Assembly (NCBI GenBank): GCA_038208115.1
Contig: JBBQZC010000001.1
Coordinates: 13,977-77,976 of the forward strand
DNA from: Candidatus Moraniibacteriota bacterium
GTDB taxonomy: Bacteria > Patescibacteriota > Minisyncoccia > Moranbacterales > GCA-2747515
Direction of reading: 5' to 3'
DNA: 64,000 nt
Under the pieces are notes generated by a model. It was not told where the DNA came from, searched no databases, and saw nothing but the letters and a program-made list of their open reading frames with translations. Positions 8,531 to 34,702 of the stretch are shown in pieces. The position numbers and the translations under genes are program-made. Within the stretch, counting starts at the first letter, position 1. The number at the start of each line of letters is the position of its first letter.

Positions 8531-9919
8531 TTATTTGATTACTTTTAATTTCTCAAGTGCCATGAGGACGTGAATAGAAAAAACATCAAGAAATTCCAAT
8601 TCTTGTGACGCAATACTGTTATTTCCCTCAAACCCAAGAAATAGAAAACCTTTACATGAATTGTCTGCAATAAATGGAACTACTACAAAATAACTCAAAT
8701 TTCCATTTATATTAAAGTGGGCAATATCATAATATTCACATGAGGAACTTATTGTTCTTTGTTCTTTAATCATTTTTTTGATGAATGCAATTTTTTGCGA
8801 ATCCACTCTTCCAAAAACATTCATTTTTGTCTTATGATATCCCTCTCCAAATACCAAACTAAACAGACCCTTGCTATCATATTTATATATTAAAGCCACA
8901 TTTGCTTGCGAAGAAGTCATGGCAACATTTGTGATATGTGCAAAAAGTTCTTTTTTGTTTTTTTTATAATTTGAGTGCTTATCTATTTCCAATAATGCTG
9001 CAATTTTTCTATTGGAATAACCTACTTGCTCGTAAGCATCGATGAGATTATCTCTAATTTTTTGTTGCAACTCACTTTGAACTACGTGATATTCCTCTTG
9101 ACTTTTTTTTAGATCATAAAACAGTAAGCGATATGGATCCATAAGTCCGATTTCTAAAATGGCCTTATAAATCAAAAGAAATGAAATGTATTTTAGAAAA
9201 TGTCCAAGCATATTCTGGAAATCATAAACATTAATATATCCAGTGAAAATTAACTCTGAAATTACTTTAACGATGAGAGCGAGAGAAAGAAGATTATATA
9301 CTGAAGAATCAAATAATACTTTCTTTTTATAGAGCAATGCGATAGAAACAACAAAAATACCAACAATTACATATTCACTAACTACTTTGAAACGAGTAAG
9401 TCCAGCTGTTTCGGTGTACATATTTGGAAATACATGCCAATAAAATATAGATAGCAACATCAATATTACAATTATCATGTACGTCAGAAATATATAATTT
9501 GCATTGAGTAGAATCCTCCATTGATCTTGAACAGATTTTTTTCTTAAAATAATAAACGCTCCAATAAATGAAAATGCCTCAAGATAGCGTGCACTGATCC
9601 AGAGTTGTGTAGGAAGATTGGTCGTGTGATCCATAAATATATTCATTCCCTTATAACTCAAAACATGTAGCAAATCTAAGCCACCGACAAAAAAATAACC
9701 AATTCCCAGAATAAGCAGATAGTAGTTGCTCACAAAACTTTTTGACGACCATGCGACAGCAAATATGCCGAAAGATATGACTACGGTGAAAAGTTCGATG
9801 AGAGAATGAAATAATAAATAACTATGCAAACTGGTCAATTGTAATACGAAACAGCTCACAATAATCCCTAGTGGGAAAACAAGTTTTCTTATTGCTTTTT
9901 TGTCTGCATTCATATGCAA
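8531..9919 (-). CDS. Membrane sensor protein: multi-TM (MASE-like) N-terminal domain + cytoplasmic GAF-like domain, no obvious output domain
   Basis: About 8 predicted TM helices in residues 1-260, then a GAF-like region (FSLVFGEGYHK...YFVVVPFIADNSCKGFLFLGFEGNN). There is no kinase, GGDEF or HTH. Confidence 0.5.
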   Translation of the reverse strand: MHMNADKKAIRKLVFPLGIIVSCFVLQLTSLHSYLLFHSLIELFTVVISFGIFAVAWSSKSFVSNYYLLILGIGYFFVGGLDLLHVLSYKGMNIFMDHTTNLPTQLWISARYLEAFSFIGAFIILRKKSVQDQWRILLNANYIFLTYMIIVILMLLSIFYWHVFPNMYTETAGLTRFKVVSEYVIVGIFVVSIALLYKKKVLFDSSVYNLLSLALIVKVISELIFTGYINVYDFQNMLGHFLKYISFLLIYKAILEIGLMDPYRLLFYDLKKSQEEYHVVQSELQQKIRDNLIDAYEQVGYSNRKIAALLEIDKHSNYKKNKKELFAHITNVAMTSSQANVALIYKYDSKGLFSLVFGEGYHKTKMNVFGRVDSQKIAFIKKMIKEQRTISSSCEYYDIAHFNINGNLSYFVVVPFIADNSCKGFLFLGFEGNNSIASQELEFLDVFSIHVLMALEKLKVIK

Positions 9920-10132: not shown

Positions 10133-10678
10133 TTATTCCGTTCTGGTATCTAGAGCAGTTACTTTTTGATCACGCTCTTTGTCAGCTTCTGGATCACTAA
10201 AACTTTTATCCTCCGTGTCGTTAGAGTTGTCTGGTGTTAAGTTCTGGTCCGATTCAGTGATTTGACTACCATCATTTGCCTGATCGACGTCGACACTATT
10301 TAGATTATTTTCTTCATCTGGCGTATCTACATCGGGATGGATAGGGTCTTCCGTCTCACTCGGCAAGTCAGTATCGGGACTACTTGACAAATCTTCTACA
10401 GCCACATCAAAGACAGTTACAGTATCATTTGGAGTTTCTTTTTGCGTAGAAATCTCCTCCACATCACCAAGCAGCAAATTACCGTCTTCACGAACTTCGC
10501 GTAAGAGTGCACCCTCTTCCGTCCACGTGGAAGCGATAAAAAAATTTTCTGAGGATTTTTCTTTATCAACAAAAATGGCATTCGTGCCACTGATACGATT
10601 TGCATTCATCATCAAAAAAACCAAAAACATGGCAAAGGAAATTTTTTTTATTGATTTAAAAATTGTTTTCATGATCAT
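10133..10678 (-). CDS. Small acidic secreted protein with a SipW-cognate-type signal peptide
   Basis: N-terminus MIMKTIFKSIKKISFAMFLVFLMMNANRISGTNAIFVDKEKSSENFFIAS resembles the TasA/SipW-cognate signal class. The rest is D/E/T/P-rich. Confidence 0.55.
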   Translation of the reverse strand: MIMKTIFKSIKKISFAMFLVFLMMNANRISGTNAIFVDKEKSSENFFIASTWTEEGALLREVREDGNLLLGDVEEISTQKETPNDTVTVFDVAVEDLSSSPDTDLPSETEDPIHPDVDTPDEENNLNSVDVDQANDGSQITESDQNLTPDNSNDTEDKSFSDPEADKERDQKVTALDTRTE

Positions 10679-10682
10679 ATGT

Positions 10683-11423
10683 TTACAAACCCATCCTTCT
10701 CCTCGCTTTTATTATTTTTTCTGGAACGATCTCTGTATTTTTGAAAGTAGCTTCCTGCGCTCTACTTTCGCCCGTGTAACGAAAATACTCTTCTTTGAGG
10801 GGATAAAATTCATCAAATTCCTGAATTCTACTTTTTCCCGTGAATCGGATAGGTTCTTTTTTGAGAGGATGAAATTCCTCCAGAATCTCGCTTTTTCTCT
10901 TTCTCCTTTTGTAGCTCTTCACTATTTCATCCTTAATATTCTTGATCTCTTCGTAAATAATTACCACTGCTGGAATGATCACGAGAAGAATGAATCCTGG
11001 CATCGTACGTGCATATCCAATCGGATAACCGATGTATGGGATTATGAAAATTTCTTTGCCGACAACATTACTTTGACTGGTCATCTCACCGTCCACATCC
11101 TCATTGGCATCACCCTTGGTTTTATATGAGATCTTTCCATTATCATTATTTATAGAAACAATGCGATGTGTAATCGTCACTTTCGAATCATTGGTTGCGC
11201 GAGTCACGATGTCACCGACATTATAGTTAGACATGGATTTCACAAAAATAAGACTGCCTGTATGTATCGTCGGTTCCATGGATCCAGATTGTACTGTATA
11301 AACCTTATAATTCCCTTTGATGGGTAAGAAAGTTATCACTATCAAAGCGAGGAATGACAAAATCACTACCCATATAAAACTTCCTATTATTTTGATGATC
11401 TTTGCTGTCATATCTTTTTTCAC
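10683..11423 (-). CDS. sipW: Signal peptidase I, SipW type (archaeal/eukaryotic-like S26B)
   Basis: N-terminal TM, then SGSMEPTIHTGSLIFV (catalytic Ser box) and GDIVT...ITHRIV (His box); C-terminal TM and basic tail. Adjacent to TasA-like genes. Confidence 0.8.
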   Translation of the reverse strand: MKKDMTAKIIKIIGSFIWVVILSFLALIVITFLPIKGNYKVYTVQSGSMEPTIHTGSLIFVKSMSNYNVGDIVTRATNDSKVTITHRIVSINNDNGKISYKTKGDANEDVDGEMTSQSNVVGKEIFIIPYIGYPIGYARTMPGFILLVIIPAVVIIYEEIKNIKDEIVKSYKRRKRKSEILEEFHPLKKEPIRFTGKSRIQEFDEFYPLKEEYFRYTGESRAQEATFKNTEIVPEKIIKARRRMGL

Positions 11424-11444
11424 TTATATTTCACATTATTGGTG

Positions 11445-12518
11445 TCAAAACCAATGATACTTTTCATGTGCACACTTTTTGTTTACACACGCATCATGTG
11501 TCTTTGGATTTTTGTCATCACAATCATCTTTTCCTCGACACGATGGATGCACACAATCATTGTTGACGATCCCATCGCAATCATTGTCCACATAATCATC
11601 ACAAATTTCCTCAACTGGCAGTACTTCACCTTTGCACTTTCCCCAACGTCCATCACGAGTACACGTCTCCAGACCGCTCCGACAACTACCAATATCTTTT
11701 GTGGTAGAATTGCCAGAATAACACGCACGTGTCGACCGTGGGACACATTTATCCGTATCACCTACAGTGATATCAGCACATCGAAAACTCTTATTTTTAT
11801 CTGACTGTTTAGCATAAAACTCAATATCAGCCTTATACGAATCGGTTTGTATGATGTTGCCGACAGAATCCAAAACAGTCCAACTGACTCCGAGATAGTA
11901 ATCTTTATTTTGTGTGAGTGGTCCGATATTTCCGCTAAAGACATTTGTATTTTCGCTATCCGCCAAAGGCAGTATAAGTGTTTGGAGAGGTCCTGTCCCG
12001 CTAGTTAATAACTGATCACAGTTAGGCTGATAAATATTATCGCCTGGTTTCACATGATTTTTTTTACAGACATCAGCCCACACTGTGAAATTGAGATTTT
12101 GTGCCAACTCTCCATCCCATGCATTAGAATTATTTTCTGCATCATCCTCGAGCAATTCCGGCTCGACAGAACTTATATCATCATTTTCTGTTGGGCGGAT
12201 GATCGCACAACCCCATGCGTCCTGATTTTTGAGATGTAAGCTAATTGTTCCCTCTCCCCAATCACCTGGTTTTACATCATCAAAGTTAAAAAACTTTTGA
12301 TGTGTAAGATCTTTTTGTCTCCAGTGTCCAGCATTTGGATTCCCATCTACATCCTTGTTATAATAACCAGCATAATCGATTTCCAAATCGAGTTTCTTCT
12401 TGGAGTATGTGTTCCAAATCGGCTCCTGACCCTGTACAAAACAAGCATATGCCTCATAGCCACCCATCGTTGCGATGATTGCTATGATAATAAGACTTTT
12501 GTAAAAACGCTTTAACAT
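11445..12518 (-). CDS. Secreted TasA/camelysin-like domain protein with a cysteine-rich C-terminal metal-binding-like module
   Basis: Signal peptide. FNFDDVKPGDWGEGTISLHLKNQDAWG is shared with the two downstream paralogs and resembles the TasA core LSNLKPGD. The C-terminus has CxxC...DNDCDG...C repeats. Confidence 0.55.
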   Translation of the reverse strand: MLKRFYKSLIIIAIIATMGGYEAYACFVQGQEPIWNTYSKKKLDLEIDYAGYYNKDVDGNPNAGHWRQKDLTHQKFFNFDDVKPGDWGEGTISLHLKNQDAWGCAIIRPTENDDISSVEPELLEDDAENNSNAWDGELAQNLNFTVWADVCKKNHVKPGDNIYQPNCDQLLTSGTGPLQTLILPLADSENTNVFSGNIGPLTQNKDYYLGVSWTVLDSVGNIIQTDSYKADIEFYAKQSDKNKSFRCADITVGDTDKCVPRSTRACYSGNSTTKDIGSCRSGLETCTRDGRWGKCKGEVLPVEEICDDYVDNDCDGIVNNDCVHPSCRGKDDCDDKNPKTHDACVNKKCAHEKYHWF

Positions 12519-12564
12519 AACTTCTTTTTAATCAGGAGATTATATTTTGTCATTTGCTCTTTGG

Positions 12565-13932
12565 TTAGGCTCCATCAAACCCAACTGGGTTGTTCTCATA
12601 TTGTTCAATTTCAAAAGTAATATCTGATTCAAATATATCTGTTTGTGCTTCATTACCCGTATCAGATGGCAATTCCCAACCGATGCCAAAATAGTAGGTC
12701 ACGCCAGAAGTCATGTGACCGTCCGCCGTAATTCCAGTAGCGAGGACATTTCCATTATCTGCATATGCTGCGAGAATTGCATCTGTAATAAGCCATTCTT
12801 CTCCACCAGCATCGACCGCACCTGGTTCGATGAGTACTATTTCTCCATCTTGCTTGATGTTGTCACCCTCACCGATGTCATTTCCCTTACCTTGAAAACC
12901 AGCCGTCACACCAGAATCCAGCCATACCTGAAAATCCAAATTTTCCCGAAGTTCACCCTTACCATCAGTACATGCGCTCCCCTCCGCTTCTTCTTCTGGA
13001 TCTACACAGGTACCATCTTCATCTTGCGTCACATCTACCACCATTTTTCCCCACGCGTCTCCATTGCTAATATGCAGACTGACAGTATTTTCTCCCACAT
13101 CACCAGGTTTTATGTCACCAAAATTGAAGAGTTTGTTAGTAGGCCCAAGATCAGTCATTGTCCACGTATTGTCACAACTCACACCATCGAGATCTTGAAC
13201 TGTAGACTCCGGACAATTCATCTCATGGATATCAACATTATCCAAAAACATGCCTAATTGATCATCTACTCCTGTTTCTTCAAAAATTATTTTTACTGTA
13301 CCCACAGTTGGTCCCGTGATAATCTGCGAAAATGAAGTCCATACAAAAGGATCGACTGAGGACAGAGAGGCATCAAGAATCACCGAATTGTCAAAAGTAA
13401 CTTTCAATTTGTTATCGTCGTGACCTGGTCGTGGTGCATATTTAAATGATATTAAATATTTTCCACTAGAGACTGCGCTGATATCCTGTGATAATTTAAC
13501 TGGGTAAAAACTATCCAATTCTACATATTGATTTCCATCAAATGCAGTAGAACCCAGGCTGATGTCATTTTCCTGATATTCCAAACCTTCAACATCTCCA
13601 GGCCCAGGCGTTCCTTCGACGATCCACGGTGCGATATCACCTCCTGAAAATATCTGCCAATGATCTGTATTATCAACATCAGGATCTTCAAAACTGCCAT
13701 TTGAGACCAAATTATCACCTACTGTCTCACAACTGGACTCATCAACCCATACTCCATCTTGACAGACGAAGCCATTATAATGTGCGGTACTGTCCACCTC
13801 CAAATCCAAACTATCAGCCATAAAAGTATTGCCTGTGGACGTCTCTGCATCTGAGAAAAAAGACCACGTAGCGCCAGAGGCAATCGCACCGACTACAGTC
13901 ACGATCGCCATACTTTTAAATATTTTTTTCAT
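12565..13932 (-). CDS. Secreted TasA/camelysin-like protein with SipW-cognate signal peptide
   Basis: N-terminus ...GATWSFFSDAETSTGNTFMADSLDLEV (SipW-cognate class). Core FNFGDIKPGDVGENTVSLHISNGDAWG. Confidence 0.6.
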   Translation of the reverse strand: MKKIFKSMAIVTVVGAIASGATWSFFSDAETSTGNTFMADSLDLEVDSTAHYNGFVCQDGVWVDESSCETVGDNLVSNGSFEDPDVDNTDHWQIFSGGDIAPWIVEGTPGPGDVEGLEYQENDISLGSTAFDGNQYVELDSFYPVKLSQDISAVSSGKYLISFKYAPRPGHDDNKLKVTFDNSVILDASLSSVDPFVWTSFSQIITGPTVGTVKIIFEETGVDDQLGMFLDNVDIHEMNCPESTVQDLDGVSCDNTWTMTDLGPTNKLFNFGDIKPGDVGENTVSLHISNGDAWGKMVVDVTQDEDGTCVDPEEEAEGSACTDGKGELRENLDFQVWLDSGVTAGFQGKGNDIGEGDNIKQDGEIVLIEPGAVDAGGEEWLITDAILAAYADNGNVLATGITADGHMTSGVTYYFGIGWELPSDTGNEAQTDIFESDITFEIEQYENNPVGFDGA

Positions 13933-13975
13933 AAAGCGTATATTATTAATTATATTTTAAAATTAAAATCTTTAT

Positions 13976-14005
13976 CCTCTCGCTCAGAAAAAATTGAGCG
14001 AGAGT
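13976..14005 (-). terminator. Intrinsic terminator hairpin after the 14027..15439 gene
   Basis: CCTCTCGCTCAgaaaaaatTGAGCGAGAG: a perfect 10-bp stem in an AT-rich context just 3' of the stop. Confidence 0.5.
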
Positions 14006-14026
14006 AAAAAGTATTAATAAAATACT

Positions 14027-15439
14027 TTAATTTGAGAAATCTGAGATTTCCCCATTAAAATCAATCCAATCGACATATCCAGTATCACCAGATGGTCCAG
14101 GCTGTCCAACGCGAACACCCAACCATGAATCAGTTGAACGTGTTTCGGCATTTGGATAATCCGCAAGGATTTGTGCCCATGTCTTGACTGTTGTTCCAGG
14201 AGTCGTACCTGTAACATCAACTAATCCAATTGGCCAAGTTGCACCCGAATAAGTCCATGAACCTGTAAGTGCATCTACAGTTGTCCACGTATTTGATACT
14301 AGACCAACAGGGACCTGGACAAGTCTTTTTTGCCAAATGTCAGTGTTATTGAAGTCGATATTGAAATTAAGGAATGGCGTGCCGTTCGAAGAATCAATGT
14401 CGTATATACGATATTTAAGAGAAGTTATACCAGACAATTTAACATCATTGTAGCGATAGGTTGCGATGTTGTAACGAGGATTGACACCGCTATCCAAAGT
14501 CATTTGTGCTGCTCCCGTAGATCCCGGACCAGCAACTATGTCATCAATGCCTGCAGTACCGCTAAACTGATTGATTGACATGATTGTGTCATTGGTATCA
14601 TTGTAGAAAAACCATCTGCCGCTTGTTTTTGCTGAAACCAGACTACTAGATTCTATATCATTAGCAGTTATCCCATTATTTCTTGGGGCCGGACAAGCAA
14701 AGTTGTCATTATTTCTCGCTTGTTCAATGTAGAACCAAACATCACCAATTAATGAATCGGATTGCGAAATATTTGTCACAGCCGAACCACTACAATTCAG
14801 GGTTCCGTTTTCAATTCCACTGATTGTTCCATAGCACCAATACAATCCCAGATATTTAGTAGTTGCACCAGTCAGTGTTCCCAAATCATAAGCCTTACCA
14901 GACAAAACATCACTAGCTGGTCCAAAAAATGGATTTGCAAATAAAGGATATTCTCCTGATTCCCAGATATTGTCACCATCAAGATCATCCCAAGCAAAAA
15001 CATTAAGTTCCTGTGCCAACTCTCCTTGGCCTATCCCACCAGTCGTGTCAAATTTGCTTTCTGGTTCAGTAATCCCGTTGTCATCACTTTTCATCTTGTC
15101 AAAAATAACACAAGCTCTCGCGTCATTATTTATAACATGAAGACTTATTGTATTTTCACCCTCGTCCCCTGGCTTTAAATCAGCAAAATCGAAAAACTTT
15201 TGATTTGTGATATCAACACCTGGACTATCTTGACCCCATGTTCCCGCTGGATACGAAGCTCCATTATACGTTGCTTGACTATCAACCTTCAAATCAATTG
15301 AACCAGCCGTAAAATTGTTTCCAGTAGATGTTTCCGTATCACTAAAGAATGAATACGTTCCGTACCCTGCAATCGCAGCGACAGATAGTACGATTAGTCC
15401 GCTTTTGATCATTTTTTTCATAATTTTTTGTTCCCTCAC
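14027..15439 (-). CDS. Secreted TasA/camelysin-like protein with SipW-cognate signal peptide
   Basis: N-terminus ...AGYGTYSFFSDTETSTGNNFTAGSIDLKV. Core FDFADLKPGDEGENTISLHVINNDARA. The likely true start is MKKMIKS (about 15421), with a GAGGGA SD. Confidence 0.6.
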   Translation of the reverse strand: MREQKIMKKMIKSGLIVLSVAAIAGYGTYSFFSDTETSTGNNFTAGSIDLKVDSQATYNGASYPAGTWGQDSPGVDITNQKFFDFADLKPGDEGENTISLHVINNDARACVIFDKMKSDDNGITEPESKFDTTGGIGQGELAQELNVFAWDDLDGDNIWESGEYPLFANPFFGPASDVLSGKAYDLGTLTGATTKYLGLYWCYGTISGIENGTLNCSGSAVTNISQSDSLIGDVWFYIEQARNNDNFACPAPRNNGITANDIESSSLVSAKTSGRWFFYNDTNDTIMSINQFSGTAGIDDIVAGPGSTGAAQMTLDSGVNPRYNIATYRYNDVKLSGITSLKYRIYDIDSSNGTPFLNFNIDFNNTDIWQKRLVQVPVGLVSNTWTTVDALTGSWTYSGATWPIGLVDVTGTTPGTTVKTWAQILADYPNAETRSTDSWLGVRVGQPGPSGDTGYVDWIDFNGEISDFSN

Positions 15440-18002: not shown

Positions 18003-20666
18003 CTAGATTGAGGGATTATTTTTCTTTGGAAAAAACGACCAGTCTATAGCGAGATAAAAAGCAACTATAGCCATTAGCCAAATCCAGAATGGTAGTCTAT
18101 CAGATGACTGCAGCTCACTGTCAACGATCGCATTTAGATATTCATTCGGTTTTGACTGGAGATCTTCCAGAGTAACAGGTAATTCTGCAGCATCAGCGAA
18201 GTTGATTAGGCTTGCATAGCCCAAAATTGTAAGTGCATTATAGTCTTTGTTGCTTTCCACTTTTTCTCCATATCCATCTTCACCCTTCGCATTGGTTGCA
18301 TATGCAATATCTGTCTTTTTTCCTGGATTATTCACTGAAAGTTCGTATTTAATCAAAATTTTATCACCCTTTTCCATACTGCCGATCTGCCAGGAATACG
18401 CAACTAATTCTGTATTGTTTTCATCAAGCATTTTGTCTTTGACTAAAATATTATAGATTGTACTATCTCCTGTATTTTCTACGATGATGGTGTTTTGGAT
18501 ATTATCACCAGGTATCACTGAAGCGCCAGCACTACTAATCCTCTTGATGTCAATCTCTGAATCCACATCTTCATCATCATACATAAATTCATCCCCATCA
18601 GATATACTATCAGCAGCAGCATCGTCAGCTACTTCATCGTATTGGTGTATCACCGATGTATCATCCGTAGCGTGATTATTATCTAATTTTACTTCTTTGG
18701 TCGCTGTCGAGATTTCCGCCACAACATGCATACGACTCTCCACATTTTCTGTTTTTTTAACTTTTGCATGAACGATGAGTGTTTTTTCTTCTCCTGCTTT
18801 CATCCCTGGCAAATCCCACGACGTTTGATCTGCCGATATTTCATCAGGCAATGTGAGATCAATCGTGGTCGCCTCACAATCAGCCTGTCCCGCGTTTTTA
18901 TACTGAATCGTATAATCGATGGCCTGTTCTGGTGACACCTGATCCAATCCATCGTCGATAGAAATAGTGAGGTCAGGATAGGCAAATTCGATATCTCCTT
19001 GCCAATGACCCATATTATTCACGACTCCAAAAAACCAATTATCACCAATGATATTGGTATTGATCATATTGAATATATTGGTAACAGCCGAGGCATTTCC
19101 GGTCGTGATATTTCCGCCTGCATTATTACCTCCTGTAAGTGCTGTTGTCTCCACGGTATTATCCACGTGTGCATGATTATTATTGTACACAGTGAGTGCT
19201 CCTACAGGAGATGCGTCGATGGACTCATGACTATCGATATCATACGCCAAGACATCACTCAAATTATCATTACCCCAATTCAAAAGCGTTCCATTCCAAC
19301 TCCCCATATTATTTACCAAGAGCAAAAACCAGTTATTTTTAATGATATTTGTATTGATGACATTTACCACATTCGTTGCAGAGATCGCATCACCAGTCTG
19401 AATGGTCGTAGAGTATGCAGAAGAGTTATTTCCTGTATCAGCTGTTGTCACCATGGTATTATCTACATGTGCATCGTTCTCATTGACAATCACCGTGTCA
19501 CGGAATACACGTGGAGATCTTGTCGTAAGCAATCCCTGACCCGGCACAATCAGATCTCCGATCCAATTCCCAAAAATATTTACATTTGCGAAAAGCCAGT
19601 TTTCACCTATGATATTTGTATTGACATGATTGACAATATCAGTGATAGCGGTCGCACTGCCAGTATTCACATCCACATCGCCTATCAATTCATTTGCGCC
19701 AGTAATTGCTTCTGTTATCACATTGTTTGTTAATTCAGCATTATTTATATTTGTAATCGCCGCACTGATGACATTGCTTCGGTCCTGTGCATCAGAAATA
19801 ATGTGGTGAAAAATTTCGAGAAGATTAATATCACTGACATAATCACCATAAATGTCTATGTTCAGATAATCCCCATTTTGCGTGATCACATTTGTATTAA
19901 TATCATTATTGACAATCGTCACACTCGCAGCATCTCCTGTTTCTACTTGTACAGCCTCATCTGCCTGAACCTGATTATGTGCATCATTGTCTACTATTTG
20001 GTCATACTGTTCATTTTGGCCAGTATTTGCAATTGTCTCTCCATCATTTGAGATCACAGCGTCGTTCACATTTTCAATCAGTACTTCTGGACAAGTTTCA
20101 GGACATATTACAGTCTCTTCACTATCGTCATACTCCTCACCATTTTTTTCATCATTTTCTGGATTAACCTCTCTAGGACACGCGCACGCATCGACGATAT
20201 TTTCTCCGGCAGGCATTGTTTGCACTGACTCTCCAGCAAGAGTAGCCTTATCCAACACATTTTCAGACACATTTACATCTGTCGTCAACGCACTAGCTGG
20301 ATTTGATTCATTTTGCTCTATAGAAGACACCGCTTGTGCAGTCGATTCCGACATAGAAGGATTTTTATCTGCATCATCTGTTTTTATGTCATCTTCATGA
20401 TCATTAGCTGTATCATCCTGTGCAGTTATGTCAACTTCCTCACTTTCAGATTTTTCCTCTGCTTTTTTATCACGTGAATCATCTGCGATTACATCTTCCT
20501 TTGCCTCATTCGTTATTGCAGTCTCTTCGGCATGTACGTAAAAAACAGGACAAAGCTGTCCGCATATTAAAAAAAATATCATAAAATGAGCAAGTATTTT
20601 GGGAAAGCGTCTTTTTTTCATCATATATTTATTACCACGTGTTCGGCTAATTATACGTATTTTCAC
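18003..20666 (-). CDS. Large secreted, cell-surface-anchored repeat protein (887 aa)
   Basis: Signal peptide, an acidic N-region, three about 100-aa internal repeats (..NTNIIGENW/NNW..NIFGNW/MGSWNGTL..), a DUF11/CARDB-like beta domain and a C-terminal hydrophobic anchor (LPFWIWLMAIVAFYLAI). Confidence 0.6.
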   Translation of the reverse strand: MKIRIISRTRGNKYMMKKRRFPKILAHFMIFFLICGQLCPVFYVHAEETAITNEAKEDVIADDSRDKKAEEKSESEEVDITAQDDTANDHEDDIKTDDADKNPSMSESTAQAVSSIEQNESNPASALTTDVNVSENVLDKATLAGESVQTMPAGENIVDACACPREVNPENDEKNGEEYDDSEETVICPETCPEVLIENVNDAVISNDGETIANTGQNEQYDQIVDNDAHNQVQADEAVQVETGDAASVTIVNNDINTNVITQNGDYLNIDIYGDYVSDINLLEIFHHIISDAQDRSNVISAAITNINNAELTNNVITEAITGANELIGDVDVNTGSATAITDIVNHVNTNIIGENWLFANVNIFGNWIGDLIVPGQGLLTTRSPRVFRDTVIVNENDAHVDNTMVTTADTGNNSSAYSTTIQTGDAISATNVVNVINTNIIKNNWFLLLVNNMGSWNGTLLNWGNDNLSDVLAYDIDSHESIDASPVGALTVYNNNHAHVDNTVETTALTGGNNAGGNITTGNASAVTNIFNMINTNIIGDNWFFGVVNNMGHWQGDIEFAYPDLTISIDDGLDQVSPEQAIDYTIQYKNAGQADCEATTIDLTLPDEISADQTSWDLPGMKAGEEKTLIVHAKVKKTENVESRMHVVAEISTATKEVKLDNNHATDDTSVIHQYDEVADDAAADSISDGDEFMYDDEDVDSEIDIKRISSAGASVIPGDNIQNTIIVENTGDSTIYNILVKDKMLDENNTELVAYSWQIGSMEKGDKILIKYELSVNNPGKKTDIAYATNAKGEDGYGEKVESNKDYNALTILGYASLINFADAAELPVTLEDLQSKPNEYLNAIVDSELQSSDRLPFWIWLMAIVAFYLAIDWSFFPKKNNPSI

Positions 20667-29304: not shown

Positions 29305-29491
29305 CGATTTATTGTTAATTTTTACAGATATTCATTTAACAACAGTATACCATAAAAATCGTGAAATATGCGTAATTTGATGTCCTTGTTTTCTTTCGCG
29401 TATACGCATCTCTAATTTATTATTTTGCGAGAAAACACAAAATTCCCCGCAAAGTGAGCCATTTCTGACTCCATACTCATTCCTGGATATG

Positions 29492-29537
29492 ACTGTTCAA
29501 GGTAGCCCTCACGAGGAGATTTTTACCTTGAACAGTT
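29492..29537. repeat. Perfect 13-bp inverted repeat (hairpin) at the island boundary
   Basis: ACTGTTCAAGGTA-n20-TACCTTGAACAGT between the AIPR-like gene stop and the CARDB gene start. Confidence 0.5.
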
Positions 29538-29695
29538 TTGCAAACCACGCACCAATACGGCGGTTGGGCTTGTGCTTAAGTAACATATTCAGTTATCACC
29601 TACACTTTATCATTCATCTTAACTATGTCTAATTAAGGAGCTTTTTTTTATTTTTTAACATAATTAAATTAGTTTTTCCTAAATTTTGCCATATT

Positions 29696-33212: not shown

Positions 33213-34702
<1,490 letters not shown>

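Follow-up and report, generated by a model that had tools for sequence, protein, structure and literature searches.

In this study, we analysed a cluster of five genes at positions 10133-15439 of a 64-kb stretch of DNA (the window, meaning this stretch at its full length) from a bacterium of the Patescibacteria, or candidate phyla radiation (CPR), that is closest to the Moranbacteria. The cluster encodes three paralogous TasA-like proteins (P1, P2 and P3), a SipW-type signal peptidase and a small acidic protein (P5). Our favoured reading, which we hold with moderate confidence, is that this operon makes a TasA-type extracellular fibre in which P1 and P2 would form the shaft and display lectin-like modules, with P3 and P5 at the ends. 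An earlier note on the same DNA had described the cluster as having the architecture of the tapA-sipW-tasA amyloid-fibre system of Bacillus; all five open reading frames (ORFs) that it listed were found at the limits it gave, and these co-directional minus-strand ORFs fill the region exactly:

P1: 14027-15439, minus strand; 470 residues from a GTG start, with a TasA-like core at ~1-250 and a C-terminal beta-jelly-roll resembling a carbohydrate-binding module (CBM) at ~255-470.
P2: 12565-13932, minus strand; 455 residues, a TasA-superfamily subunit with an insert resembling DUF642/choice-of-anchor C at ~74-235.
P3: 11445-12518, minus strand; 357 residues, a TasA-superfamily subunit with a C-terminal module of 112 residues and 13 cysteines.
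SipW-type signal peptidase I: 10683-11423, minus strand; 246 residues, of the endoplasmic reticulum (ER)/archaeal type (S26B).
P5: 10133-10678, minus strand; 181 residues, with a signal peptide, a donor-strand-like motif and an acidic tail.
Non-coding stretch 5' of P1: 15440-16156, minus strand; 717 nt, where the promoter of the operon presumably lies.

This layout reads most naturally as a single operon, since the internal gaps are short (94, 46, 21 and 4 nt in gene order from P1 to P5) and the flanking gaps are larger (717 nt upstream of P1 and 213 nt downstream of P5).

The three TasA-like proteins have in common the block F-x-F-x-D-x-KPGD-x-GE-x-T-x-SLH-x-x-N-x-DA, and a family core hidden Markov model (HMM) recognised all of them at E-values between 6e-68 (5.9e-68 for P1) and 2e-108 (1.7e-108 for P3) and no other ORF of the window, which bears out the paralogy proposed earlier on the basis of the shared KPGD core. 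Identity to P1 over aligned columns was 44% for P2, 36% for P3 and 28% for P5. The leaders of P1 and P2 contain the signatures GTYSFFSDTETSTGNNF and ATWSFFSDAETSTGNTF, respectively, and both proteins pass TIGR04088, the model for the SipW-cognate signal (23.6 and 21.1 bits against a cut-off of 19), in agreement with the earlier description. A family N-terminal HMM, which was built without sequences from the window and searched against its 418 ORFs, gave significant matches to just four of them, P1 (E 8e-22), P2 (2e-19), P3 (3e-14) and P5 (6e-4), the next ORF scoring 0.089. In all four of these putative substrates, positions -1 and -3 of the predicted cleavage site hold small residues and P2' holds a Phe, the feature reported (PMC10269814) as making the TasA site incompatible with LepB. 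The Pfam family Peptidase_M73 (PF12389; gathering threshold 22.5 bits) matched 31 of 36 family members; P1 scored 29.0 bits over residues 8-56, P2 reached 20.6 bits and P3 had no match. The assignment to TasA/camelysin by HMM that the earlier note had looked for was therefore obtained for P1, but not for P2 or P3, and concerned the leader only.

Evidence that the relationship to TasA extends beyond the leader came from comparisons of profiles and folds. A 36-sequence alignment of the CPR core and a 38-sequence alignment of Bacillus TasA/CalY were compared by hhalign. In local mode the probability was 97.1% (E 5e-11) over a region spanning the signal, the donor strand and the KPGD strand, and in global mode it was 98.2% (E 3e-13) over 231 columns, with the permissive mode also aligning the two end to end. 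The global alignment confidently paired 'GNiiQsDs..aDItFy.eQ' with 'QNKyQGDS...F.fEAtQW' in the C-terminal strand. When a single TasA sequence was used in place of the Bacillus alignment, the leader alone was aligned. Within the CPR family, F27 is near-invariant and P84 and Q238 are invariant (P3 numbering), their counterparts being present in P1, P2 and P3, and hhalign placed these residues on F29, P62 and Q232 of TasA, P84 being the proline of KPGD. Together with F200, the latter three make up the TasA proline box, the best-conserved part of the protomer interface (Roske et al., PMC10151520). Three of the four proline-box residues were therefore matched; a counterpart of F200 was not placeable in the alignment.

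The AlphaFold2 (AF2) model of the P3 core is a beta-sandwich (pLDDT 84.5, pTM 0.77) in which the donor-strand equivalent, residues 19-39, is unstructured in the monomer. Among 350,542 PDB chains, the two best Foldseek matches to this model were 8aur_A, the TasA fibre (E 1.5e-4), and 7ueg_A, AbpA (E 7.6e-4); the matches after these were generic CBM and lectin sandwiches, and TM-scores to the TasA fibre were low. Judged by its profiles and its model, the shared core is a distant but genuine member of the TasA superfamily with a jelly-roll fold, and the kinship with TasA claimed for the shared domain is supported by the global profile-profile probability of 98.2% and by the fold matches. The term 'amyloid' is nevertheless outdated, as two reports (PMC9674648, PMC10151520) describe TasA fibres as donor-strand-exchange polymers of folded subunits.

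The arrangement of the cluster is widely conserved. Using one peptide pattern, 389 relatives were identified among GTDB species genomes, and 79 species-level loci were kept (L numbers denote such related loci; P0 numbers, such as P0006, denote database relatives). Nearly all of these loci are from Patescibacteria, including Moraniibacteriota, Parcubacteria, Paceibacteria, Saccharibacteria, Woesebacteria and others, together with a few archaeal metagenome-assembled genomes (MAGs). Two to four TasA-like genes stand in tandem in 76 of the 79 loci, the peptidase gene lies immediately downstream of them in 70, as anticipated if the cluster were conserved in relatives, and an additional leader-bearing gene follows the peptidase directly in 29. 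The window shares P3-SipW-P5 with L001 and L002, and P1-P2-SipW with L029. The closest loci are Moraniibacteriota and Parcubacteria MAGs, in accord with the CPR-like genome suggested earlier. The operon had been considered noteworthy in such a genome, but the arrangement is the rule there and has already been annotated by machine: close relatives are named 'TasA family protein [Patescibacteria group bacterium]' by NCBI and 'predicted ... peptide with SipW-like signal peptide' by JGI. Patescibacteria are also among the phyla with PF12389 matches (Wang et al. 2022, PMC9245690). Our search of the literature on TasA, SipW or camelysin in CPR found, beyond that one sentence on distribution, no paper on the operon or its products and no description of the operon architecture, the add-on domains or a protein of the P5 type. 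The operon is of a known kind that is very common in CPR, and the features of this variant are its lectin-like decoration and its minimal TapA-like protein. Among the archaeal MAGs, L010 and L072 (Hadarchaeota) and L024 (Aenigmatarchaeota) contain CPR-type TasA-like genes, as does protein P0062 (Heimdallarchaeaceae), and those in L010 and L024 sit with SipW-type peptidases; the archaeal copies point either to cross-domain transfer or to binning errors.

The signal peptidase had been assigned to the SipW type (S26B) and not to the LepB type, and its scores agree: it passes the archaeal/ER-type model TIGR02228 (114 bits, cut-off 51.85) and falls below the cut-offs of the bacterial-type model TIGR02227 (36.8 against 47 bits) and of PRK10861 LepB (12.9 against 277 bits). 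NF046067, the equivalog model of Bacillus SipW, scored 113.8 bits over profile positions 4-181 of 189, below its cut-off of 190. By these scores, the enzyme is SipW-type, in the sense of the same subfamily, and is not an orthologue of Bacillus SipW. Its only solved relatives in the PDB are human SEC11C and SEC11A, with which an alignment matches the Ser of SGSMEP, the His of (I/T)HR (here THR) and the Asp of TKGD(A/N)N (here KGDAN), and we take the aligned SEC11 residues to be the catalytic ones. Identity to the peptidases of L001, L002 and L023 was 60-62%, and as the alignments begin at residue 5, the ATG at 11411 is likely to be the true start. The charged C-terminal tail is probably cytoplasmic. 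Within it (residues ~185-228; 10740-10871, minus strand) is a tandem repeat of ~22 residues, EEFHPLKKEPIRFTGKSRIQ and then DEFYPLKEEYFRYTGESRAQ, and the orthologues in L001 and L002 are 28 residues shorter (218 residues). In related CPR loci about one third of the SipW-type peptidase ORFs are 390-593 residues long (L003:9607-11055, L012:11814-13496, L050:7039-8820 and ~25 more loci); the L003 peptidase includes a fused Lamin Tail Domain, and this type of domain recurs in the proteins that follow sipW, in the TapA position, in other genomes.

Two of the paralogs have large additional domains, both of which the earlier note had missed. The C-terminal domain of P1 (~215 residues; 14030-14692, minus strand) is very rare: a collection of 5.8 billion proteins yielded only 20 homologues, and no Pfam family covers it. 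Its relatives are mostly stand-alone secreted proteins, some of which end in a C..GW...FKNQG.C motif. The AF2 model of the domain is a jelly-roll (pLDDT 90.6) whose best folds in the PDB were CBM11, CBM30, CBM4 and CBM22 (best E 4e-3), and a full-length P1 orthologue with 50% identity occurs in L029. In P2 an insert of ~160 residues (74-235) separates the first strand from the KPGD strand, and because of it the match of P2 to the core HMM is split (residues 1-87 and 234-449). The insert scored 39.3 bits against TIGR04362 (choice-of-anchor C; cut-off 120) over the whole profile (1-157 of 157), and the P2 orthologue of L029 passes DUF642 (PF04862) with 40.2 bits against a threshold of 27. From these profile and model matches, both the P1 domain (CBM-like) and the P2 insert (DUF642-like) may bind glycans.

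The leader of P3 sets it apart from the other two. The donor motif FSDTETSTGN is replaced by AYA↓CFVQGQEPIW (the arrow marks the predicted cleavage site), and all the full-length orthologues (356-368 residues), which include those of L001 and L002 at 61-63% identity, have (A/T)YA↓C(F/V)V.G.E.(I/F)W, with YAC[FV]V kept throughout. In more distant members of the P3 subtype, the cleavage site is a simple AEA↓ and a segment rich in Cys and Trp comes after it. The standard signal peptide earlier attributed to P3 is therefore an apt description, as the subtype has ordinary AxA sites and lacks the donor motif. P3 probably accepts a strand and does not donate one, as far as its sequence can indicate. 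The Cys-rich C-terminal module was seen as proposed in so far as the last 112 residues contain 13 cysteines and a DNDCDG motif, but they contain no literal CxxC. The metal-binding character suggested for this module was not upheld: P3 scored 14.6 bits (E 0.039) against PF11617, the MopE-type family, where the threshold is 27, and its L001 orthologue scored 20.6 bits. The orthologues P0006 and P0007 have a precomputed PF11617 match. The motif of PF11617 is 30 residues long and is listed by Pfam itself as no more than 'putative' in its metal binding, and for the P3 module 'metal-binding' is a Pfam label and not a finding. Cys26 of P3 (12441-12443, minus strand), which is predicted to be residue +1 of the mature protein, is conserved in every full-length orthologue and is the unpaired one of 17 cysteines; possible roles for it are an intermolecular disulfide, lipidation or a tether. 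A lipoprotein assignment for P3 was considered on account of the conserved Cys of AYA↓C and is mentioned here without being claimed, as residues -4 to -1 (E-A-Y-A) make a poor lipobox and a lipobox regular expression matched one distant homologue only, P0023.

P5 had no Pfam or NCBIfam match at E<=1. Its N-terminus, SGTNA↓IFVDKEKSSENFFIASTW, aligns with the leader and donor strand of P1 and P2, its GTNAIFVDKEKSSENFF being aligned to GTYSFFSDTETSTGNNF of P1, and it contains the donor-strand-like motif GTNAIFVDKEKSSENFFIASTW. The claim that P5 has the same cognate signal as the TasA-like proteins was confirmed as a resemblance, by the N-terminal HMM (E 6e-4), but not by TIGR04088, which P5 fails. 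Past residue ~55 the protein is an acidic, low-complexity tail (23% Asp+Glu, pI 4.05) that is probably disordered. Orthologues lie directly 3' of sipW in L001 (E 1.6e-11) and L002 (E 2.6e-8), and conservation in the family is confined to the N-terminal ~55 residues. Among 1.84 billion representatives only two further relatives were found, both of like build, and for this reason P5 was rejected as a widespread class and is regarded as lineage-restricted. Of the P5 relatives, P0263 scored 11.9 bits against TIGR04088 and the others had no match. In L023, L029 and L005, the gene in the P5 position encodes a similar N-terminus with one or two Lamin Tail (immunoglobulin-like) Domains after it, and the post-sipW protein of L029 narrowly passes TIGR04088. 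The parallel to tapA-sipW-tasA is real, but it does not extend to homology, as P5 lacks a folded middle domain: on the comparisons made here, it is a positional counterpart and at most a functional equivalent of TapA, not a TapA homologue.

These observations suggest a mechanism for the assembly of the fibre. P1, P2, P3 and P5 would be exported by Sec and cleaved by the membrane-bound SipW-type peptidase at TYS↓FF, TWS↓FF, AYA↓CF and TNA↓IF, respectively, all of which have the small-X-small pattern with Phe at P2'. Once released, the N-terminal strand of P1 or P2 (FFSD[TA]ETSTGN.F) would be inserted into the jelly-roll of the next subunit by donor-strand exchange, making contact through the counterparts of F29, P62 (in KPGD) and Q232 of TasA. 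Since their donor strands are nearly identical, P1 and P2 would probably co-polymerise in one mixed shaft, which would display the two lectin-like modules, the CBM-like one of P1 and the DUF642-like one of P2, as an adhesive glycan-binding fibre for attachment to a host or a surface. P3 may be a terminal subunit at one end of the fibre, where it would accept a strand without donating one, a role suggested by its retention of the acceptor body, its loss of the donor motif and its disulfide-rich end module. Potentially, P5 occupies the groove left open at the opposite end, as an initiator, cap or anchor, like TapA, because it consists of little more than a donor-like strand and an acidic tail.

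Several of our results weigh against such a fibre, or against parts of it. P3 and P5 gave no TIGR04088 match at E<=1, and consequently a different peptidase may process them. The M73 match in P1, P2 and ten relatives is confined to the signal and the donor strand (profile positions ~3-58 of 196), and the database labels 'TasA family', which NCBI gives to the relatives, and 'Peptidase M73' consequently rest on ~50 N-terminal residues. In its default mode, hhalign covered just the first 77 columns of the comparison with Bacillus TasA/CalY, and searches of PDB sequences with the family profile HMM, and with P1 alone, retrieved no TasA. The CBM-like call for the P1 domain is weak, with no match at <=1e-3, and the P2 insert scored 20.4 bits against DUF642, below the threshold of 27, although it covered profile positions 2-156 of 157. 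Large appended domains might also hinder polymerisation, the polarity roles of P3 and P5 are drawn by analogy alone, and we found no experiment on any CPR member.

Possibly, the TasA-like proteins are non-polymerising secreted or surface adhesins or lectins that share a SipW-processed leader and a jelly-roll, with the peptidase as their maturation enzyme and no fibre at all. This would account for the CBMs and lectins that follow the top two Foldseek matches with similar scores, for the low TM-scores to the TasA fibre, for the extra CBM-like modules of two of the paralogs and for monomer models that fold well alone. We nonetheless consider it unlikely, as folded-monomer crystals are known for TasA itself too, the donor-strand equivalent is disordered in the P3 monomer model, and the conservation of the (near-)invariant CPR residues that align with the TasA proline box is hard to explain without that interface; a donor-strand-only P5 likewise makes little sense without an acceptor groove. 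We give very little credence to a function as camelysin-like (MEROPS M73) secreted metalloproteases, or as other enzymes acting on host envelopes, for which the name of the matching Pfam family, 'Camelysin metallo-endopeptidase', would speak. The M73 match spans the signal and donor strand alone, no HExxH or other metalloprotease motif occurs in any of the three cores, and the jelly-roll fold is like that of the structural proteins TasA and AbpA. P3 was rejected as a metalloprotease, its sole HExxH (HEKYH) lying within the last 8 residues.

A further alternative keeps the fibre but leaves P3 and P5 outside it, P3 being an independent disulfide-rich surface protein processed by the general signal peptidase and P5 a functionless, fast-evolving remnant of a larger gene of the TapA or Lamin Tail Domain type. 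In keeping with this, both proteins fail TIGR04088, the cleavage sites of the P3 subfamily are of the ordinary AxA kind and its members lack the donor motif, and P5 has lost the Lamin Tail Domain seen in its equivalents in L023, L029 and L005 and has two other relatives only in the 1.84 billion representatives searched. Such a division of the operon seems distinctly unlikely to us, since P3 retains the full acceptor core, the invariant residues and, in L001 and L002, its place just upstream of sipW, and P5 begins 4 nt after the sipW stop. In addition, the N-terminal motif of P5 is conserved in five independent sequences, with a tail that drifts, which points to selection on the donor-like strand. 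A mixed fibre of P1 and P2, with P3 and P5 at its ends, remains the reading that we favour.

Among comparable known systems, tapA-sipW-tasA of B. subtilis (PDB 8AUR, 5OF1) resembles the operon in having an ER-type signal peptidase encoded beside its own substrates, signal peptides with Phe at P2', an N-terminal donor strand, a jelly-roll with a KPGD strand and a Gln in the terminal strand, and a minor protein with a donor-like N-terminus and charged flexible regions. TapA itself has a homologous N-terminal donor strand, a complete immunoglobulin domain and flexible termini, and acts as an initiator (PMC10151520). The two systems differ in that the gene order here is three tasA-like genes, sipW and then the tapA-like gene, and there are three diverged paralogs where B. 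subtilis has one major subunit. The subunits here carry a CBM-like, a DUF642-like or a Cys-rich module, and their cores have conserved cysteines; P5 has no immunoglobulin domain and no detectable sequence similarity to TapA families; and it takes a profile-profile or fold comparison to see the likeness of the bodies to TasA. In B. cereus the subunits are simple TasA/CalY proteins, matched by PF12389 over their whole length, and to our knowledge no lectin-like add-ons have been described for them. As in the operon studied here, B. cereus has several TasA-family paralogs with one SipW (sipW-tasA ... calY, with no TapA; PMC4292775).

AbpA/AbpB of Pyrobaculum calidifontis (PDB 7UEG) offer an archaeal parallel, AbpA being a pilin with a TasA-like jelly-roll and donor-strand insertion, and our second-best fold match in the PDB. 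AbpA is accompanied by a TapA-like partner that was proposed to give the first complementing strand (PMC9245690). Unlike the cluster in the window, the Abp operon does not encode a signal peptidase of its own, and the sequence relation is still more remote. The Pam pili of Ca. Mycosynbacter amalyticus (bioRxiv 10.64898/2026.03.03.709456) are likewise donor-strand-exchange filaments of a CPR bacterium, with an operon that encodes several pilin paralogs, with paired cysteines, and with subunits proposed to act as tip and terminator. They are set apart by their description: a Pam pilin consists of a 9-strand sandwich and a truncated immunoglobulin domain and donates the linker between these two domains as its strand, whereas the donor motifs here are N-terminal; the Pam operon encodes membrane-anchored PapD/FimC-like chaperones and lacks a signal peptidase gene, and TasA and SipW go unmentioned in the paper.

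The lifestyle of Patescibacteria is one of attachment to other microbes, and the filaments discussed so far are type IV pili and, in the 2026 preprint, Pam pili. A TasA-type operon with its own ER-type peptidase, in a near-universal layout across many CPR classes, is relevant in this respect, and its lectin-like modules make the operon studied here a concrete candidate for attachment to a host or a surface. In addition, the series of proteins in the TapA position, from a donor strand with an immunoglobulin-like domain down to a donor strand with an acidic tail, could reveal the minimum that initiating or capping a TasA-type fibre requires. A bolder proposal, which we regard as doubtful at present, is that the TasA-like/SipW operon is the most widespread surface-filament system of Patescibacteria and a second, chaperone-free, donor-strand-exchange organelle, in this lineage a modular heteropolymer whose P1/P2 shaft presents its two lectin domains to bind the envelope of the host, with P3 and P5 at its ends. 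If so, it would be an organelle distinct from type IV pili and Pam pili, and P5, in TapA's stead, would initiate or cap it as the smallest protein known to do so for any donor-strand-exchange fibre.

Some details of the gene models and of the surrounding DNA were also noted. The true start of P1 is likely the ATG at 15421, which follows GAGG, and not the GTG. The exact products of the 181-residue (P5), 246-residue (peptidase) and 470-residue (P1) ORFs were not found in the protein collection, which suggests that the deposited annotation uses other start codons; the only public copy of P5 (P0262, 165 residues) begins at Met17 and thereby loses the Lys-rich n-region of the signal peptide. In the region 5' of P1, promoter-like hexamers occur at 16049-16021 and 15926-15898, in scans whose matches did not exceed the shuffle expectation, and a terminator-like hairpin at 16112-16091 lies 3' of the gene upstream of the operon. 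The downstream neighbour, 213 nt away (8531-9919, minus strand), encodes a membrane protein with a MASE3 sensor domain (275 bits) and a C-terminal part of ~200 residues without assignment; a regulatory tie between this gene and the fibre operon is possible. Upstream by 2.5 kb (18003-20666, minus strand) is the gene for an 887-residue protein with DUF11 repeats and a sub-threshold DUF7507 match, which is probably another cell-surface protein.

Elsewhere, the window has a G+C content mostly of 35-40% per 2-kb bin (range 30-42%), and ARAGORN identified no tRNA gene in it. A complete bacterial 16S rRNA gene is present at 33214-34702 (minus strand), with no 23S or 5S match in the window, and such an unlinked 16S rRNA gene fits a CPR genome. 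Finally, a full-length LOOT RNA (Rfam RF03000; positions 1-121 of 121) was identified at 29456-29570 on the minus strand, scoring 64.2 bits against a gathering threshold of 46.4.

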